This document shows positions 1,383-59,382 of a stretch of DNA of 64,000 bases, one piece after another (within the stretch, counting starts at the first letter, position 1; the number at the start of each line of letters is the position of its first letter). The notes under the pieces are model-generated. The model saw only the letters and a list, made by a program, of their open reading frames with translations. It was not told where the DNA came from and ran no database searches. This stretch comes from an uncultured bacterium (lineage in GTDB: Bacteria > Zixibacteria > MSB-5A5 > CAIYYT01). The position numbers were made by a program, and so were the translations under genes. Location of the stretch: the NCBI GenBank assembly GCA_963707485.1, contig CAVPQS010000077.1, positions 646-64,645 on the forward strand, given 5' to 3'.

Positions 1383-1470
1383 TCAATTCAATTGACATCG
1401 ACTCGATTGGCAATTAAGTTGCGACGTGACCCTAAAAGAGTAACTGCAACCGCCAAAGGAATGTAGTATC

Positions 1471-1662
1471 ATGGATGCTCAGCTTCCAGAATGTCTCAAG
1501 TGCAAGGTCGGACATTTGCTCCCGTTATCGGATTATGGGCGCGACGGCGCTTCGATTCGGTATAAAGCGTGGGCTTGTTCGAACCCGGAGTGTGGTTTCA
1601 ACCTGCGGATAGATAACGGTGAAATCTCTTTCGGCAAGACCATCTTGCCTTCCAACAAGTAA
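1471..1662 (+). CDS. Small zinc-ribbon protein (CxxC ... CxxC)
   Basis: 63-aa ORF with CLKC...CSNPEC spacing typical of a zinc ribbon. Confidence 0.4.
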   Translation: MDAQLPECLKCKVGHLLPLSDYGRDGASIRYKAWACSNPECGFNLRIDNGEISFGKTILPSNK

Positions 1663-1687
1663 TTGCTTTCCCCGCGCGTGAGGTGAC

Positions 1688-4493: not shown

Positions 4494-4694
4494 ACTGAAA
4501 TAACATACGCGATATCTGAAAGCAGCTTAAGGACTTTCTCCCTACGATATGGGAGCGCTCCCACAAATTCACGCCTGCAAAATCCCCGCGCAGCCGCTGT
4601 TTCCTTTTGAACAGGGGCTCAAGCTCAATCCCAGCAACGATATAAGCGCCTGAGAAAACTTAAGTGCATCTCGGCAAAATATCTGCACAGAGAG

Positions 4695-4964
4695 ATGCCG
4701 GAGAATATGCCCGAAGGAGGAGGCGCAATGCGAGTGAAGTTCACGCTGACGATGGATGATTTGACGGTAGATGACCAGCATTACGATTCGGTCGTGATTG
4801 ACTGGGTTACCGAGGTCGAACAGCAAGAGGTGCTTGACTTGTCGCAAAAGTGGATCACTTCGCAGAATTTCCTCACCCGGAGGATGATCGGTCTGCAGCG
4901 CGTCGGCGAGTCCTCGCTGACGATCGAGCCGATCGACGAGACAATTTCATCTGATTACGAGTAG
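4695..4964 (+). CDS. Small hypothetical protein
   Basis: 89-aa ORF divergent from 3654..4493. Alternative start at MRVKF (4728). Confidence 0.35.
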   Translation: MPENMPEGGGAMRVKFTLTMDDLTVDDQHYDSVVIDWVTEVEQQEVLDLSQKWITSQNFLTRRMIGLQRVGESSLTIEPIDETISSDYE

Positions 4965-4976
4965 GGGAACGAGAAG

Positions 4977-5300
4977 ATGTTTGCCGGGTGGAAAGCGCAA
5001 CTATCGCAACTAACCGGGGAAGCGCCGGGTCGTCTCGCGGATGCGGTCGTCGCGTTTCACGGCTACTTAAGCGCCGAGTACGGACCGCTGACCGCGTGGG
5101 CGGTGTATCTCGCGATTGCGTCGCTGTTGGCGCTGTTGCTGTGGCGCCTGGTAAAGTTCTCGTTCGATGTCGTTCGCTGTGTGGCAATACCGTCGATGGC
5201 AGTCGCCCTGATCGGGGCATGGTTATCGCCACTCAGCTTCATGCACATCCTGCCGGTGGCAGCATTGGTGTTCACCGGAGTGATGGTCTTTCGAGGATAA
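4977..5300 (+). CDS. Small membrane protein (2-3 predicted TM helices)
   Basis: Hydrophobic stretches AWAVYLAIASLLALLLW and LPVAALVFTGVMVF. Contiguous with neighbouring small genes. Confidence 0.4.
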   Translation: MFAGWKAQLSQLTGEAPGRLADAVVAFHGYLSAEYGPLTAWAVYLAIASLLALLLWRLVKFSFDVVRCVAIPSMAVALIGAWLSPLSFMHILPVAALVFTGVMVFRG

Positions 5301-5368
5301 GCACGTTCTGGCAGACAGATTGGCAACACGGACTTTGAGTCGAGCAAAGCGCTCGCTGGGGAGAGACT

Positions 5369-5545
5369 ATGAGGCCGTTCAAACGCCGTAAAAGAACGAA
5401 TTGCCCGCTATGCAGCGGCAAGCTGGTGAAGGCCCAGGGCAGTATACGTTGCCCGGCATGTCGGATCGAGGTCAACGGCGATTCCTGCCGTTTCCTGAAT
5501 CTCCCGGCTTCAGTCCAGGGCGCTGCCGATAGCGGTAAGGGATAG
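5369..5545 (+). CDS. Small zinc-ribbon protein (58 aa), absent from the supplied ORF track because it is under 60 aa
   Basis: ATG at 5369, stop TAG at 5543-5545. Translation MRPFKRRKRTNCPLCSGKLVKAQGSIRCPACRIEVNGDSCRF... has CxxC-x14-CxxC. Confidence 0.4.
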   Translation: MRPFKRRKRTNCPLCSGKLVKAQGSIRCPACRIEVNGDSCRFLNLPASVQGAADSGKG

Positions 5546-5550
5546 GCACG

Positions 5551-6027
5551 ATGGATACGAATCCGCAGCGATGCCACATCTGTGGCAAAGTCATGCACGA
5601 GTTCAAGGGCGTCTATCTATGCCTACCGTGCAACGAGAAGTACGGCGACTTCTATGGCTTCTTCAATTCGGCCTCGCGCGACTACCACGAGGAAAAGGAA
5701 TATGTCATTATCGATTGCCCGGGAGTGACGATTTATGACGAATCCAATTCCCGCGTCGTGCAGGGTGTGAAATGGCACGATGATCGCGATCACTCAAAAG
5801 GGTATGAAATTGTCGGCAAACAAATATACGCGCCAAACCACACCAAGACACGCCGAGTCCCCAAGGACAAGGCAGGCAATATCAGCCGCTGCCAGTCATG
5901 TCAGGATTTCACGGTGCGTATGCGCATCTATAATTCACAGGTGGGCAAATCAGACTATCAGCAGAGTTCACCGCTCATGCCGAAGGATGCCGACAAATTC
6001 ACGCGTCCCGATATTCACGGGAAATAA
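5551..6027 (+). CDS. Hypothetical protein with N-terminal zinc ribbon
   Basis: RCHICGKVMHEFKGVYLCLPCNEK at the N-terminus. 158 aa. Confidence 0.45.
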   Translation: MDTNPQRCHICGKVMHEFKGVYLCLPCNEKYGDFYGFFNSASRDYHEEKEYVIIDCPGVTIYDESNSRVVQGVKWHDDRDHSKGYEIVGKQIYAPNHTKTRRVPKDKAGNISRCQSCQDFTVRMRIYNSQVGKSDYQQSSPLMPKDADKFTRPDIHGK

Positions 6028-8873: not shown

Positions 8874-9608
8874 CTAATCGGTATCGTACTTTTTGCGTTC
8901 GCTCTTGGACACTTCGGTTGAAAGGGGATATATCTGGATTTCGGGAATCTGGGCGTAAGCCGGCGCATCGGCGACATCGCCAATCAGTCTGGCAACATCG
9001 GCGGTTTCGAGCAACTGCTGTCGTTTTGGATCGCCAGAGGAAACAATCTCACCCGCAGAGTTCATGTTATTCGGGAAGACGCTGGTAACGCGAATTTTAA
9101 ATGGCTTGAACTCAAGACGCAGCGAGTCGGCCAGACCCTGGAGCCCGAACTTGGAGGCGCAATAGGCGGAGATATTAGCCTGACCCTGTTTACCTCCGAT
9201 CGAATTAATGAAAACGATCTGCCCATGTGATTTTTTTAGGAGCGGAGCGGCTGCCTTGGTCATTAGGTAGTGCGATTTCAGGTTTACCGAGATGATTTGG
9301 TCCCAGGAAGCCTCGTCAAATTCCTCGATTGCACCCATCAAGAAAATGCCGGCATTATTTACAAGCAAGTCGAGTTGGCCAAACGATTCGCGGCAGATAC
9401 GCGCGACCTCGATACAAGTCCCCGCCTTGGTGATGTCGCCGGAAACGTACTTCACCTCAGGATGATCCGTCAAGATGCGAAGGGCATTTTGGGCCAATTG
9501 CTTTTCGAGCCCGACCAAGAGGAGTCGAAATCCGCGCGCCTGCAATTCCTTTGCCGTAGCCAGTCCGAGTCCCCGCGATCCACCGGTAACTATTGCCACA
9601 CGTTCCAA
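8874..9608 (-). CDS. SDR-family oxidoreductase (sepiapterin-reductase-like context)
   Basis: VAIVTGGSRGLGLATAKEL Rossmann motif, NNAG, YCASK (YxxxK). Confidence 0.85.
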   Translation of the reverse strand: MERVAIVTGGSRGLGLATAKELQARGFRLLLVGLEKQLAQNALRILTDHPEVKYVSGDITKAGTCIEVARICRESFGQLDLLVNNAGIFLMGAIEEFDEASWDQIISVNLKSHYLMTKAAAPLLKKSHGQIVFINSIGGKQGQANISAYCASKFGLQGLADSLRLEFKPFKIRVTSVFPNNMNSAGEIVSSGDPKRQQLLETADVARLIGDVADAPAYAQIPEIQIYPLSTEVSKSERKKYDTD

Positions 9609-9655
9609 AACTTTTCCTCCGCTTTAGTTATTCAGCACCAAAGAATCGAAATTCA

Positions 9656-10063
9656 CTATCGAGCCACTTCAAACCGGTTGTTTTCGGATTCCCAGAGAAC
9701 TACCCGAGAAAGCAGGTTCTTTCCAAGCGCAACATCGAGAATCTCAAAGATCTTGCCGGCGAATGCTTCCGTCGTTGGTATCAGTCCTTTCATAAACGGA
9801 ACATCGAGATTCAAGTTCTTGTGATCGACCTTGGATACGACTTCTGATTCGATAATCTGCTTCAGGGTTTTGAGATTGATAATCATCCCGTTTGCCGGAT
9901 CAATCTCGCCGGTGACGCTGACCTCAAGGATATAGTTGTGGCCATGTCCGTTGGGGTTAGAGCACTCGCCGAAAATTGCGCGATTTTCATCGTCCGACAG
10001 GCCGGGCTTATGCAGCCGATGTCCGGCGCAGAAGGTCATGCGTCTGGTAATTGTTGTTTTCAT
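9656..10063 (-). CDS. queD: 6-carboxy-5,6,7,8-tetrahydropterin synthase / 6-pyruvoyl-tetrahydropterin synthase family (QueD/PTPS)
   Basis: RRMTFCAGHRLH...ECSNPNGHGHNY carries the CxxH and HGH zinc-ligand motifs of the PTPS fold. 135 aa. Confidence 0.85.
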   Translation of the reverse strand: MKTTITRRMTFCAGHRLHKPGLSDDENRAIFGECSNPNGHGHNYILEVSVTGEIDPANGMIINLKTLKQIIESEVVSKVDHKNLNLDVPFMKGLIPTTEAFAGKIFEILDVALGKNLLSRVVLWESENNRFEVAR

Positions 10064-10998: not shown

Positions 10999-12366
10999 AT
11001 GCCAAAGTTGAATAACATTCTTGAAGCCATCGGCAATACGCCGCTTGTGCAACTCAGGCGCATGATGCCGGAAGGCTCCGCCGATGTCTTTGCCAAGCTT
11101 GAATTCATGAATCCGGGTGGTTCGATCAAGGACCGCATGGCGCGCTATATTATCGAAGATGCCGAGAAGCGCGGCGAACTCAAATCTGGGATGATCGTAG
11201 AAAACACCTCGGGCAATACCGGTGTTGGTGTCGCCATTGTGGCCGCAGTAAAAGGATACAGGGCGATATTCACGATTCCCGACAAGATGTCGGATGAGAA
11301 GATCAACCTGCTCAAAGCTTTTGGCGCCAAGGTCATTGTTACCAAGACTAATGTGCCGGCCGACAGCCCGGAGTCGTACTACGAGACGGCCAAGCGCATC
11401 CATCGCGAAAACCCGGGGTCGTTCTACCTCAATCAATATCATAACCCAAAGAACATCGAGGCTCATTACAATCTCACAGGTCCGGAAATCTGGAAGGACA
11501 TGGACGGCAAGATAGACTATTTCGTCGCGGGTATCGGCACAGGCGGGACATTGTCAGGAGCCGGCAAGTTTCTCAAGGAGAAAGACAAGAATATCAAGAT
11601 CATTGCTGTTGATCCGTACGGGTCGGTGTTTTACGACTTCTTTAAGACCGGCAAACCGGGCAAACCGGAGGTCTATAAGGTTGAAGGCATCGGCGAGGAC
11701 ATGATCACCCAAGCGATGGATTTCTCGGTTGTCGACGATATGATTCAGGTCAACGACCGCGACTGTTTTCTGACCGGACGCGAGTTGACGACGAAGGAAG
11801 GCATATTTGCCGGCGGATCTTCGGGCGCAGCGGTCTGGGGTGCGATTCAAGTGGCTAAGAAGGTCGGTCCCGGGAAGCGGATTGTTGTTGTTCTGCCGGA
11901 TAGCGGCACGCGCTATCTTTCAAAGATGTTCAACGAGACCTGGATGCGCGATTATGGATTTCTCGAAGAGCGCCCGGAGCTTGGAACGGTACAGCAAATA
12001 CTCGACCGCAAGAACGGTCAGGAGATTATTTCGGCAGCCAACGACGACACGCTTCACAATGTGATCGATAAGATGAAGAAGTTCGATATCTCGCAGTTGC
12101 CGGTATTAGAAGCTGGAGAATTGATTGGATTGATTCGCGAATCCGATTTACTGAGCCTGATGGTAGCGGGCCGATATTCGCCGTCACATCCGATAAGAGA
12201 TGCGGTCGTTCACGATTATCATATGGCGGCGCGCTCGATGCCGGTTTCGCGGTTGGCGGAGTTATTCTCAAAATCGAATGCAGATGTCGTTTTTGCTGTT
12301 GATAACCGCAAGCTGGTTGGTATCTTGACCAAGATTGATTTAATCGACTATCTCGCAGGAGCATGA
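10999..12366 (+). CDS. Cystathionine beta-synthase (PLP cysteine-synthase fold plus C-terminal CBS-domain pair)
   Basis: GNTPLV...GGSIKDR...SGNTG and a C-terminal roughly 120-aa CBS pair (DTLHNVIDKM...VLE..GLIRESDLL..). 455 aa. Confidence 0.85.
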   Translation: MPKLNNILEAIGNTPLVQLRRMMPEGSADVFAKLEFMNPGGSIKDRMARYIIEDAEKRGELKSGMIVENTSGNTGVGVAIVAAVKGYRAIFTIPDKMSDEKINLLKAFGAKVIVTKTNVPADSPESYYETAKRIHRENPGSFYLNQYHNPKNIEAHYNLTGPEIWKDMDGKIDYFVAGIGTGGTLSGAGKFLKEKDKNIKIIAVDPYGSVFYDFFKTGKPGKPEVYKVEGIGEDMITQAMDFSVVDDMIQVNDRDCFLTGRELTTKEGIFAGGSSGAAVWGAIQVAKKVGPGKRIVVVLPDSGTRYLSKMFNETWMRDYGFLEERPELGTVQQILDRKNGQEIISAANDDTLHNVIDKMKKFDISQLPVLEAGELIGLIRESDLLSLMVAGRYSPSHPIRDAVVHDYHMAARSMPVSRLAELFSKSNADVVFAVDNRKLVGILTKIDLIDYLAGA

Positions 12367-13535
12367 TTTTGAAAGATTACGTACCTTCGCAGCATCAATT
12401 TGAGACAAACGCCATTCATGCCGGTCAACCGCCTGATCCGAGCACTGGCGCAATCACTTTTCCGATTTACGCAACTTCGACGTATGTGCAGGAAGGCATC
12501 GGCGGCCACAAGGGATTCGAATACTCTCGGACGGCGAATCCGACGCGTTGCGCGTTGGAAGAGTGCCTTGCGTCTCTTGAGGGCGCAAAGTACGGGCTAT
12601 GTTTCGCCTCCGGTATGGCGGCAACTTCAAATATTCTGACGCTGCTCAAGGCCGGCGATCATGTCGTGTGTTCAGATGATCTTTATGGCGGGACCCCGCG
12701 CGTCTTCAACAAGGTCTACGCCGATTTCGGCATAGAGTTTACCTATGTCGACACCTCATATACAGATAGAATTGAGAGCGCAATCAAGCCGAACACGAAG
12801 ATGGTCTTTATAGAGACTCCAACCAATCCGATGTTGAAGATTACCGAAATTCGGGCTGTTGCGACGCTGACGAGCAGGAAGAACTTGATATTAGTCGTCG
12901 ACAACACTTTTGCCTCGCCGTTTTTGCAGCGTCCATTGGATTTGGGAGCAGATATTGTTGTGCATTCGACCACGAAATATATAAATGGACATGCCGATTC
13001 AGTTGGCGGGGCGGTACTGACTTCGAACGAGAAGTGCCATGAGCGAATGAAGTACTGTCAGAATGCAGTCGGCGGAATTATGGGACCGTTCGACGCGTTT
13101 CTTACCATGCGCGGCGTCAAGACGCTGGCTCTGCGAATGGAACGCCAGTGCGAAAACGCAATGAATCTTGCGATTTACCTGGAGAGCCATCCCAAGGTGG
13201 AACACGTCTACTACCCGGGCCTCGAGTCATTTCCACAACACAAGATTGCCGAGCGCCAAATGCGGCTGTATGGCGGAATGATTTCGTTTGTGATTAAGGG
13301 AGGACTCGAATCCGCCAAGAAGATGTTGGCAAACACACCAATTTTTGGTCTGGCGGAGTCGCTGGGCGGCGTCGAGTCGCTGATCCAGCATCCCGCGATG
13401 ATGACTCATGCTTCGGTTGCCAAGGAAGTTCGCGACAAGATCGGCATCAGCGATGGTCTTGTGCGTGTCTCGGCCGGAATCGAAGCCTACGAGGACCTTA
13501 AGCGCGCATTAGATGTCGGCTTTAGCTACGTATAG
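12363..13535 (+). CDS. Cystathionine gamma-lyase/gamma-synthase family PLP enzyme (reverse transsulfuration)
   Basis: AIHAG...YSRTANPTR...VVHSTTKYINGHAD (PLP-Lys) motifs. Overlaps the CBS stop by 4 bp. Confidence 0.85.
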   Translation: MILKDYVPSQHQFETNAIHAGQPPDPSTGAITFPIYATSTYVQEGIGGHKGFEYSRTANPTRCALEECLASLEGAKYGLCFASGMAATSNILTLLKAGDHVVCSDDLYGGTPRVFNKVYADFGIEFTYVDTSYTDRIESAIKPNTKMVFIETPTNPMLKITEIRAVATLTSRKNLILVVDNTFASPFLQRPLDLGADIVVHSTTKYINGHADSVGGAVLTSNEKCHERMKYCQNAVGGIMGPFDAFLTMRGVKTLALRMERQCENAMNLAIYLESHPKVEHVYYPGLESFPQHKIAERQMRLYGGMISFVIKGGLESAKKMLANTPIFGLAESLGGVESLIQHPAMMTHASVAKEVRDKIGISDGLVRVSAGIEAYEDLKRALDVGFSYV

Positions 13536-13589
13536 TAACCCCGAAGCGGACCGATTTCCGGCCTGCTTCATCTTAGACAGGTTGTCTCC

Positions 13590-13985
13590 ATGTACAATAC
13601 CAGCTACACATTCGGAGTCGAAACGACAATGGGATTTGACGATGCGCGCAAGCGTGTCGAAGAATTGCTTAAAGAGGTCGGGTTCGGCATTTTAACTGAA
13701 ATTGACGTCAAAGCGACGATGAAGAAGAAGCTTGATGTAGAATTTCGCCCCTATGTTATCCTTGGCGCCTGCAATCCCAAGATCGCCCATGAGGCATTCA
13801 AGCGCGAACTTGAGATCGGGTCGTTGTTGCCGTGTAATGTCATCGTATATGCTAATGACAAGGGCGGCACCAATGTTTCGTTTATGGATCCGCTGGCGGT
13901 ATTGGGGTTGACCGGCAACAAGGATCTGACTGCGCAGGCAACCCAGGTGCGCGAATTGCTGCAGACGGTGGCCGGCAAGATTTAG
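13590..13985 (+). CDS. DUF302 domain protein
   Basis: YVILGACNPKIAHEAF and overall 130-aa length match the DUF302 pattern. Confidence 0.6.
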   Translation: MYNTSYTFGVETTMGFDDARKRVEELLKEVGFGILTEIDVKATMKKKLDVEFRPYVILGACNPKIAHEAFKRELEIGSLLPCNVIVYANDKGGTNVSFMDPLAVLGLTGNKDLTAQATQVRELLQTVAGKI

Positions 13986-21855: not shown

Positions 21856-23766
21856 TTGAGTCAAAGAGCCGATTTGAACAGGAGGAATTCGATGGATCCC
21901 AATGAAATTCGGGAGTTCCTGAATCATATTGAATTATTCAAAGACCTCGACCACGATGAAAGAGAGTTGCTCGTTGCCGGCATTGTGGTGCATGAATACG
22001 AAGCGCACACGCTGCTTTTCGAAGAGAACACAGCGCGTTTAGAGATGTATATCATCTTTCAGGGGGAGATTGAGCTGCTTAAGCGGACGCCTTACGGCGA
22101 GGACGCGCGGCTGACGGTATTTTCACGGTTTGATTTCTTTGGCGAAGGCGCAATCATGGAAGACTACCCGCACAACACCTCAGCGCGAACTCTGCTCAAA
22201 TCGACTATTCTCACTATCAGCCGCGATCGTTTTTACGAGTTGTCGCAAGAGCGGCCGACAATCGGACTCAAGTTAATCTCCCGAATCGCCCGGGTTATAT
22301 CGCGGCGGATGCGTCAGGCCAGCACGCGAGTGGTAAACGTTGCCGCGCAGTACGTATCGGGTCAGACGCGGTCAGAGCACGACTTGCTCGGTGACCGCGA
22401 GGTGCCGTCGGAATATCTCTACGGTATTCAAACCATGCGAGCACTGGAAAACTTCAATATCAGCGGAATCTCGCTGGCATACTATCCGGATTTTATCAAT
22501 GCACTTGCCATGGTCAAGATGAGCGCTGCGAAAGCGAATATGGAACTGGGGCTGCTCACCGAGCCGGTGGGGCAAGCGATCATACAGGCTTGCACCGAGA
22601 TCAGGCACGGCCGTTGGCATACGCAATTTGTCGTGGACATGATTCAGGGCGGCGCCGGGACCTCGACCAACATGAATGCGAATGAAGTTATCGCCAATCG
22701 TGCCCTTGAAATCCTCGGGTATGAACGCGGCGATTACAAGCATTGCCATCCCAATAATCACGTAAACTTGTCGCAGTCGACAAATGACGCTTATCCAACG
22801 GCATTAAAGATCGCACTCATCAACGCCAACGGCAACCTGGTGGCAGTGTTGAAGAAGCTGATTGCATCTTTCTACGCGAAAGCGGAGGAGTTCAAGGGCG
22901 TCATCAAAATGGGGCGAACGCAGTTGCAGGATGCTGTGCCGATGACCATGGGGCAGGAGTTTGAAGCTTATGCGGTGATGCTGGAAGAAGAAATAGATCG
23001 ATTGAATCAGAATGCCTCACTCTTCCTGGAAGTCAATATGGGCGGGACGGCGATTGGCACTGGGATCAATGCCGATCCGCGCTATTCGAGCATTGTGATC
23101 AGCCATCTTCGCGAAATCACCGGTATGGATATAAAGCTCGCGAAAAATCTGGTGGAAGCGACGCAGGATACGGGCGCCTTCGTGATGTATTCGTCGGCGA
23201 TCAAGCGGCTGGCAGTAAAGCTTTCAAAGATTGCCAACGACCTGCGGCTGTTGTCATCGGGTCCGCGCGCGGGGCTCAATGAGATCAATTTGCCGCCGAT
23301 GCAGCCGGGATCGTCAATTATGCCGGGCAAGGTCAACCCGGTCATTCCTGAAGTGGTGAATCAGATTGCCTTTCTGGTAATCGGCAATGACCTGACTGTA
23401 ACCATGGCTGCCGAGGCCGGCCAGTTGCAGCTAAATGTAATGGAGCCGATCATAGCTCACAGCATATTCGAGTCAATCGAAGTGCTCAAAAACGGCATGT
23501 TTACTCTCAAGCACCGCTGTATTGACGGGATTACGGCCAATATCGAACATTGCCGCAAGACAGTGCTTAATTCAATTGGATTGGTGACGGCTCTTAATCC
23601 TGTTTTAGGGTATGAAGCTTCGACCGAGTTGGCAAAGGAAGCGCTTCGGACGGACCGCAGCGTCTACGACTTGGTTTTGGAAAAAGGTCTCCTTTCGCCG
23701 GCGCAGCTTGACAAACTCTTATTACCGGAAAACATGATCCAACCCATCGATCGAGATAATGCTTGA
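21856..23766 (+). CDS. aspA: Aspartate ammonia-lyase (fumarase/aspartase class II) fused to an N-terminal cyclic-nucleotide-binding domain
   Basis: Residues 15-160 or so read ...LFKDLDHDERELL...FGEGAIMEDYPHNTSARTL..ISRDRFYEL..RIARVISRRMR, a Crp-type cNMP-binding domain. The rest matches aspartase: LLGDREVPSEYLYGIQTMRALENFNISG ... GSSIMPGKVNP signature. Confidence 0.8.
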   Translation: MSQRADLNRRNSMDPNEIREFLNHIELFKDLDHDERELLVAGIVVHEYEAHTLLFEENTARLEMYIIFQGEIELLKRTPYGEDARLTVFSRFDFFGEGAIMEDYPHNTSARTLLKSTILTISRDRFYELSQERPTIGLKLISRIARVISRRMRQASTRVVNVAAQYVSGQTRSEHDLLGDREVPSEYLYGIQTMRALENFNISGISLAYYPDFINALAMVKMSAAKANMELGLLTEPVGQAIIQACTEIRHGRWHTQFVVDMIQGGAGTSTNMNANEVIANRALEILGYERGDYKHCHPNNHVNLSQSTNDAYPTALKIALINANGNLVAVLKKLIASFYAKAEEFKGVIKMGRTQLQDAVPMTMGQEFEAYAVMLEEEIDRLNQNASLFLEVNMGGTAIGTGINADPRYSSIVISHLREITGMDIKLAKNLVEATQDTGAFVMYSSAIKRLAVKLSKIANDLRLLSSGPRAGLNEINLPPMQPGSSIMPGKVNPVIPEVVNQIAFLVIGNDLTVTMAAEAGQLQLNVMEPIIAHSIFESIEVLKNGMFTLKHRCIDGITANIEHCRKTVLNSIGLVTALNPVLGYEASTELAKEALRTDRSVYDLVLEKGLLSPAQLDKLLLPENMIQPIDRDNA

Positions 23767-23852: not shown

Positions 23853-25532
23853 ATGGGTAACAACCTGCGCTATAATGTAGCTGATCAGCGCCTTTCATAC
23901 AGTGGTCCGGTGGTAGAATTCGGATTTGAAAGGGACCGGGTAATCGAGTTTAATCACCGCCATGGTGCGGCGCTCGGGAATTATGAACTTCAATTGGAGT
24001 CCTGTTCCATACTAAATCTGTGTGATCGGATCAATCATACATCAAACCTCGGGGCATTGCGCAATCGCCAAGTGCGGCAATCAGTTATTGTTTCGGCTGC
24101 GATGTCAGCGATTTCGGTTGGTCTCCATGGACGCGGCAGCCTAAATGCGGTGCCCAAGCATCTGGTGACTTCCGAACTCAAGAACAATCTCAAACGCGCC
24201 AATGACCGCACGGCTGCGCAGGTCATGTCGGAAGTCCTGCAGACGACGACCGAGACATTGCCGGTTGGCGAAGAGGTCATTATCGAATCGGCGATTACCG
24301 AGGGTGTGCGCGTAAAACCGGGTGTTGAAGCGGGCGGCAATCCGACAATTGCGGTCGGCGCAGTTTTTGGCAAGCCGGAACATCGGGCGAAGTACGGACT
24401 TAAACTTCCGCAAAATGTATCCCTGCTATCGCTCGGCAATGACGTCATCGACGGTACGACCAAGTCAGTTGAGGGCTCGCACTCGAGCTTCACAGCTATG
24501 GTCGTGACCGAATCGGGGGTTAAACGTCACTTGCCTGATACTTACGTTCAGCGCTGGTTGGCTGGTGTTCATTTCGAAGAATTCAACCCGCGCGAAACGA
24601 AACTGGTCGAGATCGCAGAAATTTTGTCGGGCGCCTACGGTTATTCGTCCAAGGATAAGCTCAGCACATTTTTCCTTGATCGGCCGCGACACACCTATGC
24701 GATGGATATTCTCAACAAAGCCGGAGTGGCGACGCCTTTTGATAAAGACGGCGATTTGATGCCGGGAATAGTGCTGGGATTTCAGGGTCTGGCGTTTCCG
24801 GATGGACGGTCGCTGTCATCGATGATCGGTGAAATCGGCGGTTCGGCCGAGTGGGCCGTAGGAGTATTGCCGCTCGTTTGGCGCGGCGGCCAGGCAATCG
24901 GAATGCTGACCAGCCAATCCTCGCTGACGCGCAAAGATCTGTCGCCGGAGGAATTGTGGAAGGAACGCTTCCACTTCACCGAAGAAGAATTCATGCTGAT
25001 TCAAGATGCACGCTTCCAACGCAAACCATACTTCACGATTAGCGACATTCTCGACAACCCGATGGCAGGCGGCATCAGCGCCTTTGGCGCGATCACGGAC
25101 AATTTTTTCATTCCTTATCTGGAGGGTGTCCGCGCCGACGCAGAGCTCAACCGCGTTAGTGTCAACGTCCTGACAGTGAATTCGATTGGGATGGTTGATG
25201 TGTGGCAGATGGTTTATCGCTGCAACAATAATCTCGCAGAAACTGCCAGTTTAATGGTGTCACCAAAAGAGAATTTTGAACATCTTTGCGGAGCCGAGCT
25301 CGAAGAGGCAATCGGCAAGATGCTCAACGACAAGCGAACTCGCGAACGCTATTTGATATTTTTCGGTAATGAGTATTATCCCGCGCTGATTCCGATCCAT
25401 GATAAGATGGTTCTGCTATTGAAAGCAGTGCACGGCCTAATAGAACGCGGCGCGTGGACAGAGAAGGACCGCGAGATAATAAATTGCACTCAGCGATTGG
25501 CTCCGGAGCTGTTCGTGAACTCGGTGTCGTAA
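23853..25532 (+). CDS. glpX: Class II fructose-1,6-bisphosphatase (GlpX family) with N- and C-terminal extensions
   Basis: LGNDVIDGTTKSVEGSHSSFTAMVV is close to the GlpX DPIDGTT motif, and DRPRH and FDKDGDL match GlpX KPRH and IPDGDVA. At 559 aa it is well above the usual 330 or so. Confidence 0.6.
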   Translation: MGNNLRYNVADQRLSYSGPVVEFGFERDRVIEFNHRHGAALGNYELQLESCSILNLCDRINHTSNLGALRNRQVRQSVIVSAAMSAISVGLHGRGSLNAVPKHLVTSELKNNLKRANDRTAAQVMSEVLQTTTETLPVGEEVIIESAITEGVRVKPGVEAGGNPTIAVGAVFGKPEHRAKYGLKLPQNVSLLSLGNDVIDGTTKSVEGSHSSFTAMVVTESGVKRHLPDTYVQRWLAGVHFEEFNPRETKLVEIAEILSGAYGYSSKDKLSTFFLDRPRHTYAMDILNKAGVATPFDKDGDLMPGIVLGFQGLAFPDGRSLSSMIGEIGGSAEWAVGVLPLVWRGGQAIGMLTSQSSLTRKDLSPEELWKERFHFTEEEFMLIQDARFQRKPYFTISDILDNPMAGGISAFGAITDNFFIPYLEGVRADAELNRVSVNVLTVNSIGMVDVWQMVYRCNNNLAETASLMVSPKENFEHLCGAELEEAIGKMLNDKRTRERYLIFFGNEYYPALIPIHDKMVLLLKAVHGLIERGAWTEKDREIINCTQRLAPELFVNSVS

Positions 25533-52654: not shown

Positions 52655-54574
52655 ATGTGTGGAATTTGCGGAATATATCATTTTCAAAATAACCACGCGG
52701 TAGACCGGGAAATTATTCGCCGAATGAGCGACCGGATCAGTCACCGCGGGCCGGACGACTCCGGCGAATATATTAGTTCGGACGGAAAGCTGGCACTGGG
52801 GCACCAGCGGTTATCCATCATTGATTTGTCGTCCGCGGGCAGACAGCCGATGGCCGACTCTTCGGGCAGACTCCAAATCGTATTCAACGGCGAAATCTAT
52901 AATCACCGTCAACTGCGCGCGACGCTGGAATCAAAGGGATATGTATACAGGACTCACACTGATACTGAGACGGTCTTGAATGTATGTCGCGATCTCGGAA
53001 TCGCCGGACTCAATCGCTTGCGGGGGATGTTTGCGTTTGCACTGTGGGAAGAAGACAAGGGCGAGCTTACGTTAGTGCGCGATCGCATAGGCATCAAGCC
53101 GCTCTACTACACGATTCAGAACGGCATGGTGATATTCGCATCGGAGATTAAGGCGATACTCGTCCATCCCGAGGTCTCAGCCCAGTTAGACCCGGAAGCG
53201 CTTTATCATTATTTGACTTTGGCGGCAGCGCCGGCGCCAATGACGATGTTTGCAGGAATCAAGAAACTGCCGGCCGGTTTTTGGTTGCGCGTAGATCGAA
53301 AGGGAAAACTCACACTAACGCGATGGTGGGACGCCGTTCGCAATCAGCCGATGCTCGAAGACGATGAAGCCGGTATCGCTGCGGGAATATTGCGTCATCT
53401 GCGGGATGCCGTGGAATCGCATATGATTTCGGACGTGCCCTTCGGCGTGTTTCTTTCCGGTGGAATTGACTCGACAACAAATATCGCACTCATGTCGGAA
53501 TTGATGGATCGGCCGGTAGAGACGTTTTCGGTGAGTATTGCCGGACAGGACCAGTTCAACGAGTTTGAATATGCACGGCGCATGGCGAAGCATTTCGGCT
53601 GCAACCACCACGAGGTCGAAATCGGCGATGACGAGTTTATCGCCCTGTTTGATCAACTGGCATACTTGCAGGATGAACCGTTGGCAGACCCGGTGTGTGT
53701 GCCGCTTTACCACGTTTCGAAACTGGCGCGACAAAATGGGGTACCGGTAATACAGGTTGGCGAGGGAGCGGACGAGTTGTTCTGCGGCTATCCCAAATTC
53801 CTGCTGGCGCTGCAGCTCATTGGTAAGTGGGAGAAACTCCAATCGTTGCCGCGCCCGATGTGGATCGCTCTTTACCGATTTGCCGGCGGGTTTCTGGATG
53901 CGGCTGGAAGGCAACTGGAGCGCGAGCATCTGCGCAGAATGGGTGGAGACGAGGAGTTGTTCTGGGGCGGCGCGATTGCATTTCTCGAATATGAGAAGAA
54001 GGCGCTGCTATCCCCCGAGATGTACGCGCAATGCCGAAAGTACAGGACCTCGTCGGTGATCGACTCCCTCTATGATCAGGACGGGGATGAAGGTTATTTC
54101 GCTCGCATGATGTACCTGGAGTTGAAGCAGCGACTGCCAGAGCTGTTGCTGATGCGAGTCGACAAGATGGCGATGGCGCATTCGATCGAAACGCGAGTTC
54201 CATTTCTCGATCACCTGCTTGTTGAATACGTTCTGCGGATTCCGTCGCACTTACATTACAAGGAAAACACACTGAAGTATTTGCTGAAAAAAGCAGTGGC
54301 GGGAATCGTGCCGGATGAGATATTGAATCGTCCGAAGGTAGGATTTTGCGGTTCCGCCAAGAACATGGTTTCGCCGCGCGTGGACCGGTTTGCATATGAG
54401 CTGCTGATCTCAGACTCCGATTTCCTGAGCGAACTGGTAAACCGCGATTATATTGAGAAGATATTTGCCCGGCACCGACGCGGAGATAACCAGGGCATGC
54501 GCATTTGGAATTTGCTAAACCTTGCGCTTTGGCACCGTCAGTGGATTGGGCGTCCGCAGTATTCGCAACTATAA
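52655..54574 (+). CDS. asnB: Asparagine synthase (glutamine-hydrolysing)
   Basis: N-terminal MCGICGI (Cys2 nucleophile) and PP-loop SGGIDS. Confidence 0.9.
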   Translation: MCGICGIYHFQNNHAVDREIIRRMSDRISHRGPDDSGEYISSDGKLALGHQRLSIIDLSSAGRQPMADSSGRLQIVFNGEIYNHRQLRATLESKGYVYRTHTDTETVLNVCRDLGIAGLNRLRGMFAFALWEEDKGELTLVRDRIGIKPLYYTIQNGMVIFASEIKAILVHPEVSAQLDPEALYHYLTLAAAPAPMTMFAGIKKLPAGFWLRVDRKGKLTLTRWWDAVRNQPMLEDDEAGIAAGILRHLRDAVESHMISDVPFGVFLSGGIDSTTNIALMSELMDRPVETFSVSIAGQDQFNEFEYARRMAKHFGCNHHEVEIGDDEFIALFDQLAYLQDEPLADPVCVPLYHVSKLARQNGVPVIQVGEGADELFCGYPKFLLALQLIGKWEKLQSLPRPMWIALYRFAGGFLDAAGRQLEREHLRRMGGDEELFWGGAIAFLEYEKKALLSPEMYAQCRKYRTSSVIDSLYDQDGDEGYFARMMYLELKQRLPELLLMRVDKMAMAHSIETRVPFLDHLLVEYVLRIPSHLHYKENTLKYLLKKAVAGIVPDEILNRPKVGFCGSAKNMVSPRVDRFAYELLISDSDFLSELVNRDYIEKIFARHRRGDNQGMRIWNLLNLALWHRQWIGRPQYSQL

Positions 54575-54626
54575 TCTGGAACTCGTCTGGGCATCCCCAC
54601 GTTGATCTTGCGAAGGAGTAAATGAA

Positions 54627-56831
54627 TTGGATCACATCTATCTTGACTACAACGCCACCACGCCGATTCACCCGGAAGTTGCCGAGGCAATGGCCCCATT
54701 CCTGCGCGATCATTTTGGCAATCCATCCAGTTCACACTGGTTTGGCGTGCAGACGCGAAAAGCCGTTGAAACGGCGCGCGCCCGGGTTGCGGCGATGCTT
54801 AGCTGCAATTCGGACGAGATAATTTTCACTTCCGGCGGAAGCGAATCGGACAATTTTGCGATTGCCGGTTACGTACTCAAAAATCGCTCGCGAGGGAATC
54901 ACATCGTGACATCGCAGATCGAGCATCCGGCGGTGCTGGAGATTTGCCGGTACCTTGAGGGGCAAGGATTTCAGGTAACTTACTTGTCGGTAGACGGCAC
55001 TGGAATGGTCGATGTCGAAAAATTGCGCAGAGCACTTAGACCAACGACGATTCTTGTTTCAATCATGCAGGCGAACAACGAGGTCGGCACAATTCAGCCT
55101 GTCAAAGAAATAGCGGAGATTTGTCATGAGCGGGGAGTCGCATTTCACACTGATGCCGCGCAGGCAGTCGGAAAGATTCCAGTCACGATTGCTGCAACGG
55201 GAGCTGACTTAATCACTATCGCCGGGCACAAACTCTATGCACCAAAGGGAATCGGGGCGCTTTACGTTCGTCGCGGGATCGAATTACAGAAACTGATTCA
55301 CGGCGCCGCGCACGAACAGAATCTTAGAGCCGGAACGGAAAATGTGCTCGAAATCGTGGGTCTGGGGAAAGCCTGCGAAGTAGTCGGCCGCGAGATGGCA
55401 AAACAGGCGCCGGTCATGGCGCGACTACGCGATCTACTTGAAAATGAATTGGAATCGCGGCTGCCGCAGTGCCAGATCAATGGCGACCGCGCAAGGCGAT
55501 TGCCAAACACTCTTTCCGTTTCGTTTCCTGGGATTGAGGCAAATGCGATCATCTCGGAATTGGAAGAGGTCGCATGTTCGCCCGGGGCTGCTTGTCACTC
55601 CGACAAAGTGATGATGTCGCACGTACTGGAGGCGATGCAGGTTCCCGTCGAGTATGCGATGGGGACGATTCGGTTTTCGGTTGGCTACATGACGACTGAG
55701 GCTGAAATTCGCGTGGCGGCTGATGCGATTGAGGCAACCATCACCCGACTCGCGCCTTCGGGGATGAGTACAATTCGCGTCGCTGACAGCGATGAAGAAA
55801 TTCGCCTGACAAAGTACACGCATGGACTTGGCTGCGCGTGCAAATTGCGTCCGCAGGCACTTGAGAAGATTCTCGCCCAATTGCCTCGAACTACTGATGC
55901 GAATGTCCTGGTTGGATCGGAGTCATCAGATGACGCGGCGGTTTACCGGTTGAGCGAAGAGATGGCGGTTGTGCAGACAGTTGATTTTTTCACACCGATA
56001 GTCGACGATCCATATCATTTTGGCGCAATCGCGGCGGCCAATGCCTTGAGCGACATTTATGCGATGGGAGGCAAGCCGTTGTTTGCGCTAAGCGTGGTGG
56101 GGTTTCCATCGAATCGGTTGCCGATGCAGGTGTTGCAGCAGATTCTCAAGGGCGCCGCGGATAAGGCTGCGGAAGCGGGTATCAACATCATCGGTGGCCA
56201 CACAGTAGACGACACTGAGCCGAAATACGGCCTTGCGGTCACGGGAATCGTGGATCCCAAAACGATCAAACGCAATAATACTGCACGAGTTGGCGATCTG
56301 CTAATCTTGACCAAACCGATCGGCACCGGTATTATCTCAACGGCAATTAAGCGCCAGATGGTTAATAACGGATTGCGCGATCGCGTCATCAAGATCATGA
56401 GCACGCTAAATGCAAGCGCCGCTGATGTTATATCGCGTTACGATGTGTCGACGTGCACGGACGTTACCGGATTCGGGCTCCTTGGCCATCTCAGGGAAGT
56501 GACTGTCGGAAGCGGCGTAACGGCGCGAGTCGATTCAAAGCGAGTTCCGATCATTGATGATGCAGTTGCACTGGCATCATCGGGTGTTGTGCCGGGCGGA
56601 ACCGAGAACAACCTTGAATACGTGTCTCCCATTGTGACTTGGGGTACAGGTGTTTCGCGCGTTATGAAAATACTGCTGGCAGATGCTCAGACATCGGGCG
56701 GGCTTTTGATGGCCGTCGCGAAGGATCAGTCTGGGGCCATGATGCGCGCGTTAATTGAAAAAGGAGTGGTTGATGCTGCGATAGTCGGAGAAATCACCGG
56801 ACGGGGTGACGGGAAAATCTCAGTCGTCTAA
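54627..56831 (+). CDS. selD: Fusion protein: NifS/IscS-like cysteine desulfurase (N-terminal, about 390 aa) plus selenide, water dikinase SelD (C-terminal)
   Basis: N-terminal half: YLDYNATTP...HKLYAPKGIGALYVR (PLP-Lys region). C-terminal half: LTKYTHGLGCACKLRPQALEKIL (Cys-type SelD active site, compared with E. coli GAGCGCK), then the PurM-like fold DDAAVY...GG..DNTE-like. Confidence 0.85.
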   Translation: MDHIYLDYNATTPIHPEVAEAMAPFLRDHFGNPSSSHWFGVQTRKAVETARARVAAMLSCNSDEIIFTSGGSESDNFAIAGYVLKNRSRGNHIVTSQIEHPAVLEICRYLEGQGFQVTYLSVDGTGMVDVEKLRRALRPTTILVSIMQANNEVGTIQPVKEIAEICHERGVAFHTDAAQAVGKIPVTIAATGADLITIAGHKLYAPKGIGALYVRRGIELQKLIHGAAHEQNLRAGTENVLEIVGLGKACEVVGREMAKQAPVMARLRDLLENELESRLPQCQINGDRARRLPNTLSVSFPGIEANAIISELEEVACSPGAACHSDKVMMSHVLEAMQVPVEYAMGTIRFSVGYMTTEAEIRVAADAIEATITRLAPSGMSTIRVADSDEEIRLTKYTHGLGCACKLRPQALEKILAQLPRTTDANVLVGSESSDDAAVYRLSEEMAVVQTVDFFTPIVDDPYHFGAIAAANALSDIYAMGGKPLFALSVVGFPSNRLPMQVLQQILKGAADKAAEAGINIIGGHTVDDTEPKYGLAVTGIVDPKTIKRNNTARVGDLLILTKPIGTGIISTAIKRQMVNNGLRDRVIKIMSTLNASAADVISRYDVSTCTDVTGFGLLGHLREVTVGSGVTARVDSKRVPIIDDAVALASSGVVPGGTENNLEYVSPIVTWGTGVSRVMKILLADAQTSGGLLMAVAKDQSGAMMRALIEKGVVDAAIVGEITGRGDGKISVV

Positions 56832-57919
56832 CTTGCCTTGCGACGGTGCTTCAAGAAATCCCAAAAAACATAATCTCCGAGATTTTGTGCCGAAGCAAAA
56901 TACGCCCGACCATGGTTCAGTTCGGTGAGCTTCTGAACGAATTGCTGCAAGTAGGGGTCTTCGGCAATCATGAATGTCGTGATCGGAATCTTCTTCTTAC
57001 GGCAGACAATTGCTTCGTCGAGCGTGCGGTTGACTACGATCGGATCAAGGCCGAAGGGGTTTTTGTAAATGCTGCCGTCGCTGCGATTAATCATGGATGG
57101 CTTACCGTCGGTGATCATGAAGATTTGCTTATTGGCGCTTTTGCGGCGGAGTAATATCTGCCGTGCCAACTGAAGTCCAGCTTTGGTATTGGTGTGGTAT
57201 GGTCCGACGCCCACATACGGCAGATCTTTGATTTTGATCTCTTGAGCGAAGTCACCAAACAAGACGATGTTGAGCGTGTCCTTGGGGAAGCGAGTCAGGA
57301 TCATCTCGGTGAATGCCATTGCTACCTGCTTTGCGGGAGTTATGCGATCCTCGCCATAGAGTATCATCGAATGGGAGATGTCGATCAACATCACCGTGGA
57401 ACAGTTTGTGACCTGTTCGGTTTCGTAAACTTCGAGGTCCTCTTCCTCCATGCTCAGTCCTAAATCGGCAGTCCGCGAAATGTTATTCAAAAGCGAACTT
57501 TGGAAGTCGATATTGCGGAGATTGTCGCCGAAAGAGTACTTCTTGCGTTCAGGCAGCACCTCTTCGGAATTACCGCCTTCTTTTGGAATCGGATGTCCGC
57601 CACCGGTAGACGATTTGAGCTGGTCGAATATTTTATCGAAAGAGTCTTTGCGGAGCGAACGCTCGCCCTTGCGCGTCAAGTTCATTCCCGATGGATTAAT
57701 GTTGATTATCTGGCTTTCTTCGAGATTGCGCTTGAAATCTTCGAGATCGGCGTCCTTGGGCAGGTAACCCATGCGCTTGAGCTGATCCATGATTTGCAGG
57801 GCCATTTTGACATTCCCGTTGACCTGCAGTAGCAAGTAATTGAAAATCGACATCAAGTCGCGCATTTGGCGCAACTGGTCAATCAGCGAATCGTCCCATT
57901 CTGAGTAAATGAAACGCAT
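56828..57919 (-). CDS. von Willebrand factor A (VWA) domain protein, partner of the upstream AAA+ ATPase
   Basis: MIDAS motif LIDISHSM (DxSxS), a Thr in TNTKAGL, and ITDG. 363 aa. Start is 3 bp after the AAA+ gene stop. Confidence 0.75.
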   Translation of the reverse strand: MRFIYSEWDDSLIDQLRQMRDLMSIFNYLLLQVNGNVKMALQIMDQLKRMGYLPKDADLEDFKRNLEESQIININPSGMNLTRKGERSLRKDSFDKIFDQLKSSTGGGHPIPKEGGNSEEVLPERKKYSFGDNLRNIDFQSSLLNNISRTADLGLSMEEEDLEVYETEQVTNCSTVMLIDISHSMILYGEDRITPAKQVAMAFTEMILTRFPKDTLNIVLFGDFAQEIKIKDLPYVGVGPYHTNTKAGLQLARQILLRRKSANKQIFMITDGKPSMINRSDGSIYKNPFGLDPIVVNRTLDEAIVCRKKKIPITTFMIAEDPYLQQFVQKLTELNHGRAYFASAQNLGDYVFWDFLKHRRKAS

Positions 57920-57921
57920 GT

Positions 57922-59382
57922 TTAGTCCTTTAACATGTTCTCAAGCATGTCGACGTAAATGAACTTGTTATCCGGTGATTCCTTGGCAATGAGATTGTGT
58001 TTGTGCAATCCTTCAAGGATCAACTCCATCGCCAGGATCACGCCGCGTTCATCTTCTGTATGATAATGCGCTTTGGCGATTTCTTTAAGACCCGCTATTT
58101 GCAGCAAAGCGGCCTTATAGCTTTTGTAAGACATTTCGTCGGATATTTCGAGCCGTTTACCGGTTGAAAAGTAGTCGGTAACTGCCTCGTAGACATTTTC
58201 GCGCGGTCTCTGGTCGGCGCCGGTTTTGATCTTGCGCGGTTGCGGGAAGTGCTCATTGAAGACCTTCTTCGTGGCTTCGCCTATCAGGTTGAACGCGATG
58301 ATATTCGGTCCCTCAAGCTCGCCTTCGTAAACAAGTTCGACCTTGCCGACGATTGAAGCGACCACGGAGAAGAGGTCGCAAATACGCGGATAGTAGTCCT
58401 TCTCGTTATTGAGCGCAGCACGCCGCTCGACGTTCGAGATCAAGTTCTCGTAGGCGGAAATTGTCAATCGTGCCGACACTCCGGAAGTTTGATCGACGTG
58501 TTCACTTTTGCGGGCCTCGAATGCAATCTGCTCGATGATATCATGAATAATTTCCGGCACTTCGACTTTGCCTGACCGATTGCGCCATGCCTCCTGCAAT
58601 GTAATTTTCTTGGCAGTCTCGGCGTCGTTCGGGTAGTGCGTGTTAATCTGCGAGGCAATGCGGTCCTTCAACGGTGTAATAATATTGCCGCGGTTGGTGT
58701 AGTCCTCGGGATTAGCAGTAAATGCCAGCATCATATCGAGAGGCATGCGAATCGGAAATCCACGAATCTGGAAATCGTTTTCTTCGAGAATATTCAGCAA
58801 TGCGACCTGAATGCGCGGCTGCAAGTCGGGTAGTTCATTAATTGCAAAGATACCGCGATTGGTACGGGGAATAATGCCCCAGTTGATCACGTTTTCATCC
58901 GAAAGATCGAGCCGTTCTTTGACGGCCTTGATCGGGTCCAGATCACCGATCAGATCGGCAACAGAGACATCCGGTGTGGCTAACTTTTCGTGATAGCGCG
59001 ATTCGCGCGCCAACCAGGCGATTTCGAGATTATCGCCGACTTTCGAGATCATTTCCTTCGAGGCCTTTGTGATCGGCATCAAAGGATCTTCGTTTAGGGG
59101 GCTGCCTTTGATGACTGGAACAAACTCATCGAGGAAGTTTACCAACTGTCTGAGAATTCGTGTCTTGGCTTGTCCGCGCAGACCGAGGAGGAGAATGTCA
59201 TGTTTGGACAAGATTGCGTTTTCCAGTTGCGGCAGGACGGTACGGTCGTAGCCGATAATTCCGGGCCAGCGCTGCTGTCCAGAGCGCATTTGGTCAAGTA
59301 GATTTTCGCGCAGTTCGTCCTTGAGGCTGCGCGATTTGTAACCGGAGGCTTTGAGCGCTCCCAATGTCACTGGTAATTGCAT
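57922..59382 (-). CDS. MoxR/ChlI-clade AAA+ ATPase-like protein with atypical Walker motifs
   Basis: Colinear with Mg-chelatase ChlI and MoxR: ILLLGLRGQAKTRIL (Walker A-like with A-K-T), GIFAINELPDLQPRIQVALLNILEE (Walker B position NE instead of DE, sensor-1 region conserved). 486 aa, with a roughly 200-aa C-terminal extension. Confidence 0.65.
   Translation of the reverse strand: MQLPVTLGALKASGYKSRSLKDELRENLLDQMRSGQQRWPGIIGYDRTVLPQLENAILSKHDILLLGLRGQAKTRILRQLVNFLDEFVPVIKGSPLNEDPLMPITKASKEMISKVGDNLEIAWLARESRYHEKLATPDVSVADLIGDLDPIKAVKERLDLSDENVINWGIIPRTNRGIFAINELPDLQPRIQVALLNILEENDFQIRGFPIRMPLDMMLAFTANPEDYTNRGNIITPLKDRIASQINTHYPNDAETAKKITLQEAWRNRSGKVEVPEIIHDIIEQIAFEARKSEHVDQTSGVSARLTISAYENLISNVERRAALNNEKDYYPRICDLFSVVASIVGKVELVYEGELEGPNIIAFNLIGEATKKVFNEHFPQPRKIKTGADQRPRENVYEAVTDYFSTGKRLEISDEMSYKSYKAALLQIAGLKEIAKAHYHTEDERGVILAMELILEGLHKHNLIAKESPDNKFIYVDMLENMLKD

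Follow-up and report, generated by a model that had tools for sequence, protein, structure and literature searches.

A NifS-like/SelD fusion gene in an uncultured Zixibacteria lineage and the probable kinship of its NifS half with selenocysteine lyase

Can a single polypeptide both mobilise selenium and activate it? The question is raised by a gene in a 64,000-nucleotide stretch of contig CAVPQS010000077.1 from an uncultured bacterium of the Zixibacteria (the whole of this 64-kb stretch is hereafter the window), in which a NifS-like pyridoxal phosphate (PLP) domain is continued in frame by SelD, the selenide, water dikinase. The gene lies at 54627..56831 on the forward strand, stop included, as do all of its features given below, and encodes 734 aa from a TTG start. 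A Shine-Dalgarno GAAGGAG can be read from the sequence at 54612..54618, 8 nt ahead of this start, and alignment of homologues shows the start residue to be common to the fusion proteins, which begin M[DNK]HIYLDYNATTP. Pfam recognises Aminotran_5 (PF00266) at residues 4-361 (1e-78), AIRS (PF00586) at residues 435-542 (6e-31) and AIRS_C (PF02769) at residues 554-733 (4e-19). With the Pfam and NCBIfam domains and the catalytic residues of both halves present, this is in agreement with a preliminary description of the DNA, which had claimed two complete domains in a single open reading frame (ORF). SelD is a universal marker of selenium use, and the gene therefore shows that this Zixibacteria lineage uses selenium. 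We consider it likely, with a probability of roughly 0.7, that the fusion is a bifunctional enzyme mobilising and activating selenium for a trait encoded elsewhere in the genome, and the lineage, together with many uncultured anaerobe-rich phyla, probably recycles selenocysteine (Sec). Neither the fusion class nor the protein is new, as the class has been published and the exact protein deposited, both of which the preliminary description missed. The identical protein (P0001) stands in NCBI/GenBank as 'MAG: selenide, water dikinase SelD [Candidatus Zixiibacteriota bacterium]', and current automatic annotation of such proteins, as "SelD" only or as "cysteine desulfurase" only, masks their bifunctional nature. 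What is modestly new is the wider spread of the fusion, and that its NifS half and generically annotated stand-alone proteins share the catalytic loop of selenocysteine lyase (SCL) and group with that enzyme.

The N-terminal half (residues 4-376, 54636..55754) is, as judged from its sequence, a complete group-I NifS-type PLP domain of the class-V aminotransferase fold, matching PF00266 and, with 335 bits over residues 4-376, E. coli IscS (1P3W). Alignment with 1P3W keeps His100, Asp176, Gln179, Lys202, Cys323 and the substrate-binding Arg of the IRFS motif, and His100, Lys202 and Cys323 correspond to IscS His104, Lys206 and Cys328, the residues by which a group-I desulfurase is recognised. In the alignments the catalytic His100 is followed by Pro101 (54924..54929), where IscS has His104-Lys105 and human SCL (hSCL) His145-Asp146; Ala199-Gly-His-Lys202 (55221..55232) holds the PLP-binding Lys202 and places Ala at the position of hSCL Val256 and of the desulfurase Ser; and the mobile catalytic loop G-A-A-Cys323-His324-S-D (55584..55604), the presumed persulfide or perselenide carrier, is identical to the human SCL loop (3GZC). 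Foldseek superposes the NifS half of an AlphaFold2 (AF2) model on NFS1/IscS at TM 0.90 and on SCL at 0.87-0.88. The group-I consensus loop SSGSAC(T/S)S is not matched, the loop of the fusion protein reading CSPGAACHS, and the domain scores under the curated equivalog models, with 487.5 bits for NifS TIGR03402 (cutoff 530.75) and 412 and 407.7 bits for IscS NF010611 and TIGR02006 (cutoffs 548 and 643.2). The equivalents of Pro101, Ala199 and the Cys-His pair are invariant in all 120 of the 120 best fused homologues.

It has been shown (Collins 2012, PMC3266270) that three active-site positions set the Sec-specific human SCL apart from non-specific desulfurases: D146 of hSCL, which is Lys in group-I desulfurases and His in group II; V256, which is Ser or Thr in desulfurases; and H389, which is Thr or Ala. 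Among the changes made to hSCL only D146K gave cysteine desulfurase activity, and the hSCL catalytic loop motif can also be read from the primers in that report (PMC3266270). The SCL sequences of human and rat were confirmed with PDB 3GZC and 3A9X, and annotated rhizobial nifS genes served as references. At the three positions mammalian SCL has Asp, Val and His, with the loop GAACHSD in human and GASCHSD in rat; rhizobial NifS has Pro, Ser and Thr, with the loop GSACTS or GTACTS; IscS and NFS1 have Lys, Ser and Thr, with GSACTS; and the window protein has Pro101, Ala199 and His324, with GAACHSD. Ala199 is neither the Val of SCL nor the Ser of desulfurases, and the Ala199 and His324 positions appear to depart from NifS/IscS in the direction of SCL. 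Pro101 was considered as a selenium-specific signature and rejected, since rhizobial NifS has Pro there too; as a residue shared by rhizobial NifS and the fused proteins it is a NifS-type trait and therefore uninformative on selenium.

A neighbour-joining (NJ) tree of 97 sequences with 200 bootstraps, comprising 48 Cys-His proteins, 47 ordinary Cys-Thr/Ser desulfurases of many phyla and the 2 SCL, had SCL together with the Cys-His proteins at the main split in 100 % of replicates, and in 94 % with the diagnostic columns masked. The immediate sister group of SCL was purely Cys-His in 92 % of replicates unmasked and 78 % masked, and a smaller 30-sequence tree gave 71 %. These values come from a distance method with a simple correction, SCL forms a long branch, and the margin in mean identity is small (41.0 % vs 39.5 %). 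As such, they are moderate evidence that the SelD-fused NifS domain and eukaryotic Sec lyase are members of one subfamily, and are not proof of Sec specificity. That a NifS-like domain supplies Sec-derived selenium to SelD, as the preliminary description proposed, is the accepted literature reading of this fusion, and the SCL-type catalytic loop strengthens it. NifS-like proteins deliver Se from Sec to SelD according to Lacourciere 2000, as that work is cited in PMC4561486 and PMC3916229. The loop common to the fusion and mammalian SCL offers a testable handle on discrimination between selenium and sulfur.

Many stand-alone NifS-like proteins, with 48-59 % identity to the NifS half, have the Cys-His loop too; they are generically annotated or unannotated (loci L023-L035, L037-L040, L042, L044-L046, L048, L050, L051 and L075, and L011:5626-7143). 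Their hosts include Geobacter argillaceus, Desulfobacter, Dehalococcoidia, Clostridium sp. MB05, a Microvirga megaplasmid and others; the Microvirga copy has no selenium neighbours, and two members, P0166 and P0171, lie on contigs too short or truncated for neighbourhood context. The idea that the ~27 loci with a NifS half only, a Geobacter among them, are Sec-containing fusions broken at an in-frame TGA codon was rejected, the genes ending in real stops followed by more stops with no SelD within 10 kb. The only recurrent neighbours of the stand-alone genes are a small DsrE-like CGXC protein (4 of 25 loci), whose sole curated match is a sub-threshold one to the selenium protein YedF (34 bits against a cutoff of 110), and an ArsR-rhodanese protein (3 of 25 loci). 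We tentatively raise the possibility, which we do not hold to be the probable case, that the NifS half and its stand-alone relatives form an unrecognised and widespread bacterial group-I Sec-lyase subfamily, sister to or source of eukaryotic SCLY, whose members are now annotated 'cysteine desulfurase family protein'. If this were true, the SelD fusion would be a 'Rosetta stone' for the function of the subfamily, and the fused enzyme a true selenium-channelling machine.

The alternative that survives best, and which we nonetheless judge unlikely, is that the N-terminal half is a general desulfurase acting on cysteine to provide Fe-S or thio-cofactor sulfur, and is fused to SelD for co-expression only, or because its persulfide chemistry reduces or captures inorganic selenium, selenocysteine cleavage being no part of its role. 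The best curated matches of this half are NifS and IscS, yet their scores of 487 and 412 bits stay under the equivalog cutoffs of both families. Its identity to IscS/NFS1 (~43 %) exceeds that to SCL (~40 %), Pro101 agrees with true NifS at a position where Sec-specific SCL has Asp, and the stand-alone clade members are unlinked to selD. E. coli IscS, moreover, acts in both sulfur and selenium roles. However, two of the three SCL-discriminating positions have changed, from Ser to Ala and from Thr to His, without exception in the 120 homologues; no NifU or IscU neighbour was found beside the fused or the stand-alone members; and in at least 8 phyla the domain is joined to an enzyme specific for selenium. 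Against the bifunctional enzyme of selenium mobilisation and activation that we favour, several points weigh. Asp146 of hSCL, the sole residue demonstrated to give it Sec specificity, is Pro101 here as in rhizobial NifS, so that strict Sec specificity cannot be inferred and the PLP domain may accept cysteine too. Stand-alone Cys-His members adjoin selD, within 10 kb, in none of ~27 loci, and the Cys-His loop is therefore not a proven selenium marker. No downstream selenium gene was found in the window or in 13 of 14 fused loci, and the AF2 model, with a pTM of 0.55, predicts no fixed interface between the domains.

The C-terminal half (residues 393-734, 55803..56828) is, by its sequence, a complete Cys-type SelD and is predicted to be a selenophosphate synthetase. 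It passes both curated SelD equivalog cutoffs, with 402 bits for TIGR00476 (cutoff 125) and 391 bits for NF002098 (cutoff 299), and matches E. coli SelD (3U0O) with 295 bits and E = 5e-87. Absence of the PurM-like SelD fold from this half was among the things that would, according to the preliminary description, undo the claim; these matches, together with the two-domain AIRS and AIRS_C architecture, show the fold to be present. The Gly-rich N-terminal loop HGLGCACK at residues 399-406 (55821..55844), with Cys403, Cys405 and Lys406, aligns with HGAGCGCK of 3U0O, is invariant in a multiple alignment (A1), and carries Cys, not Sec, at the catalytic position, as had been described. On this computed alignment we take Cys403 to be Cys17 and Lys406 to be Lys20 in the usual numbering of E. 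coli SelD. The motifs DDAAVY, VDFF, NALSDIYAMGG and TDVTGFG are identical or conservative relative to E. coli SelD, and Cys stands at the Cys403 position in 118 of the 120 best fused homologues. The other two read VGLGKACK, with Lys at the Cys17 equivalent and the second Cys and the Lys retained; in these the Cys loop of the NifS domain might stand in for the absent SelD cysteine.

SelD-like families with sulfur-related roles exist (PMC4210487), and a desulfurase partner would suit sulfur delivery. The SelD-like half could on this ground be a sulfur-specific paralogue, of the kind put forward for Thermoproteales SelD-like proteins, making thiophosphate or a similar product from sulfur fed by the desulfurase half. 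We consider this highly improbable: the margin over both SelD cutoffs is wide, the Cys17/Lys20 loop of E. coli SelD is present along with the close match to 3U0O, the score on the 'fusion_not_SelD' model is 142 bits against a cutoff of 700, and one fused homologue adjoins selU.

The fusion is a real single ORF and not an assembly error. Three other assemblies (GCA_049664025.1, SRR28061197 and ERR12036780) carry the gene and its 300-nt flanks with 100 % identity, and GC and GC3 are equal across the two halves (0.546/0.587 in NifS, 0.537/0.574 in SelD). The best 120 database matches are all 712-787 aa long with both domains, at 59-100 % identity, and full-length homologues number more than 120. 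When a 151-residue query spanning the junction was used, ~29 representatives of 50 %-identity clusters crossed the junction, long eukaryote-like forms included. The linker (residues 377-392, 55755..55802) is poorly conserved in sequence, its consensus being all 'x', and near-constant in length, the spacing from IRFS of NifS to HGxGC of SelD having a median of 51 and a maximum of 53 residues in 120 homologues. In a scan of one genome per GTDB species, with fusions checked by tblastn, in-frame fusions were found in ten species-representative genomes, from Zixibacteria, Calditrichaceae, Caldisericaceae, Phycisphaeraceae, Anaerolineae (two), Lentimicrobiaceae, a Deltaproteobacteria metagenome-assembled genome (MAG), KSB1 and Bacteroidetes. 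All ten are Cys-type, and some lie on long contigs of 0.4-10 Mb. Fusions thus scored extend across at least 8 phyla: Zixibacteria, Calditrichota, Caldisericota, Planctomycetota, Chloroflexota, Bacteroidota, Desulfobacterota and KSB1. The window is itself from a MAG, but that adjacent genes were joined by mis-assembly or by a sequencing error removing a stop has a negligible chance of being true, given identical DNA in three other assemblies, the same length in more than 120 homologues, the ten species genomes of many phyla with contigs of up to 10 Mb, and a composition equal in both halves. The preliminary description had named separate genes joined in error as a possible undoing of its claim; because independent assemblies are identical and conservation is wide, assembly error is excluded. 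The spread of the fusion is much broader than published accounts indicate, which in 2014-2015 gave one or two bacterial genomes.

For the bifunctional enzyme that we favour, the following mechanism can be proposed. The PLP domain would bind free L-selenocysteine at Lys202-PLP and eliminate alanine, leaving selenium to be carried as a selenosulfide (perselenide), Cys323-S-Se(-), on the mobile loop. Selenium would then be handed from Cys323 to Cys403 on the flexible N-terminal loop of SelD, a loop that starts ~25 residues past the last NifS helix, and the SelD domain would, with ATP, yield selenophosphate, AMP and phosphate. We infer that Sec, and not Cys, is the substrate, and that the transfer runs from Cys323 to Cys403. 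Tethering of donor to acceptor would prevent the release of reactive selenide and make selenocysteine reusable as a selenium source, and the selenophosphate would feed 2-selenouridine in tRNA, Sec insertion, or both. The AF2 model has a mean pLDDT of 86.5, and the PDB chains listed as matching it each cover at most half of it. The pLDDT is <50 at residues 322-328 (the Cys323 loop), 378-390 (the linker), 399-407 (the SelD loop) and 225-233 (a surface loop of the NifS domain). Two catalytic loops and a linker at low pLDDT would be compatible with two swinging loops, pLDDT not being a measurement of mobility. A fusion of such breadth is a convenient natural system for studying the passage of toxic selenide from lyase to selenophosphate synthetase.

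The fusion class was described by Xu 2014 (PLoS Genet, PMC3916229), who found it in Spironucleus, noted it in Caldithrix abyssi and gave the protist fusion the same functional reading, and by Mariotti 2015 (Genome Res, PMC4561486), who counted two bacterial instances among 8,263 genomes and predicted that selenophosphate synthesis is retained in the fusions. Published hosts are Geobacter sp. FRC-32, Caldithrix abyssi and the protists Naegleria, Acanthamoeba and Spironucleus (PMC4561486, PMC3916229); the Geobacter sp. FRC-32 fusion is a Sec-containing form, and the protist fusions were acquired by horizontal transfer (PMC4561486). The window protein has the same two domains, with NifS N-terminal, the order stated by Mariotti for all cases, and its SelD is the Cys form, as in every published case except that of Geobacter. 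Among the close matches is P0118 of a Caldithrix sp., at 60 % identity. The Zixibacteria are a new host lineage.

Mammalian SCLY (3GZC, 3A9X) shares with the window protein the group-I NifS fold, the GAACHSD loop (in human), the lack of Ser before the PLP-Lys, its side of the NJ split, and the proposed role of handing selenium over to selenophosphate synthetase. Unlike the window protein, in which Asp146 is replaced by Pro and Val256 by Ala at ~40 % overall identity, SCL is a separate polypeptide, and it bears an insertion (hSCL ~110-130) that the window protein lacks. The closest solved structures are those of E. coli IscS and A. vinelandii-type NifS (335 bits, TM 0.90), which have the PLP-Lys, the catalytic His and the mobile Cys loop in common with it, and rhizobial NifS shares the Pro after the catalytic His. 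IscS provides selenium to SelD in E. coli. The window protein differs from IscS/NifS in falling under the curated cutoffs, in reading GAACHS and not SSGSACTS, in having Ala199 and not Ser, in the absence of a nearby NifU/IscU, and in its covalent fusion to SelD. SclA of Enterococcus faecalis (NF040779) is likewise a NifS-like PLP enzyme tied functionally to SelD; in contrast to the window protein, which scores 115.8 bits against the 525 cutoff of that model, it is a characterised Sec lyase of group II (SufS/CsdB-like, RXGXHCA), is linked to selD by neighbourhood and not by fusion, and serves the Se-cofactor trait. The commonest SelD fusions, those with an NADH-dehydrogenase-like domain (TIGR04369-related), also combine SelD-Cys with an accessory domain at the N-terminus, whose presumed task is preparing the selenium substrate, but this domain is a flavoprotein reductase and not a PLP lyase, and the window protein reaches only 142.4 bits of the 700 required by TIGR04369. 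Zhang 2008 (PMC2432076) treats the NADH-oxidoreductase/SelD fusion without mention of NifS.

The surroundings of the gene were examined for the selenium trait that the enzyme may serve. None of selA, selB, selC, selU, yqeB and yqeC was found in the window. The preliminary description, which saw no other selenium-trait gene there, is borne out by Pfam and NCBIfam scans of the window ORFs, by tblastn with E. coli SelA, SelB, SelU, YqeB and YqeC (no match at E<=1e-3), by a search for tRNA-Sec (none, the sole Rfam family match being one tRNA-Arg) and by a scan for in-frame TGA codons, whose candidate selenoprotein genes were rejected as distinct neighbouring genes that share a frame, or as antisense shadows. 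Precomputed Pfam annotation of syntenic loci of ~42-62 kb likewise held no other selenium gene, and tRNA-Sec was absent from the 14 fused loci searched. Only one of these 14 has a flanking selenium gene: in a Lentimicrobiaceae MAG the fusion is immediately preceded, on the same strand, by a 346-aa SelU ORF (tRNA 2-selenouridine synthase; L020:26-1066, forward strand), with E = 3e-39 and 40 % identity to the E. coli protein, and the fused ORF is called at 1345-3291 with its 5' end masked by Ns. The fused enzyme is therefore linked to the selenouridine trait, at least there. In general, 93 % of SelD-bearing species have SelA and/or YbbB (PMC4561486), and Sec machinery was present in every genome that by 2015 was known to carry an extended SelD gene (Mariotti 2015, PMC4561486). 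We found nothing specific in the literature on selenium use in Zixibacteria.

The gene for a glutamine-hydrolysing asparagine synthetase (AsnB, window 52655-54574) precedes the fusion by 52 nt, and the two genes probably share a transcript. In L004 (8028-9951), a relative, AsnB is split into ORFs of 271 and 384 aa, a possible frameshift or pseudogene, and the association of AsnB with the fusion is not conserved because AsnB is absent from the relative L005. Downstream, on the reverse strand and convergent with the fusion, lie genes for a VWA-domain protein (Rv0959_3rd/VWA_2) and a 486-aa AAA_5-like ATPase (window 56828-59382), followed by GlgP. The VWA gene overlaps the 3' end of the fusion by 4 nt, and the VWA/AAA_5 pair is present in all close Zixibacteria relatives (L001-L005). 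This synteny (VWA, AAA_5, GlgP and sometimes AsnB) is kept only among those close relatives; among distant fused loci no conserved neighbour was found, their neighbours being unrelated.

Elsewhere in the window, at 10999-13985, a cystathionine beta-synthase-like gene (TIGR01137, 478 bits against a cutoff of 510) is followed with a 4-nt overlap by a PLP gene of Cys/Met metabolism, of the cystathionine gamma-lyase/synthase family, and then by a gene for a DUF302 protein. A pair of this kind, acting in reverse transsulfuration, could in principle turn selenomethionine into selenocysteine, on which the fusion enzyme presumably acts. In L006, too, the fusion has a DUF302 gene beside it (9476-9760). 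In a Dehalococcoidia MAG ~3.3 kb separates an ordinary NifS-like gene with a Cys-Ser loop from a selA-selB operon (L056:3460-6694, reverse strand; 44 % and 32 % identity to E. coli), a proximity that may be coincidental. The window also contains ~1 kb without a credible gene (4493-5551), with nothing but short overlapping minus-strand ORFs of 92-119 aa whose odd translations are rich in Arg, His and Thr, and a 559-aa ORF (23853-25532, forward strand) for which Pfam gives only a weak and incomplete match, in the middle of the protein, to GlpX-type fructose-1,6-bisphosphatase (residues 196-361, E = 6e-9), the remainder having no assignment. Just ahead of that ORF, at 21856-23766 on the forward strand, a cyclic-nucleotide-binding domain (residues 46-132) stands N-terminal to a class-II fumarase/aspartase lyase (Lyase_1 and FumaraseC_C) in one protein of 636 aa, an unusual regulatory fusion.

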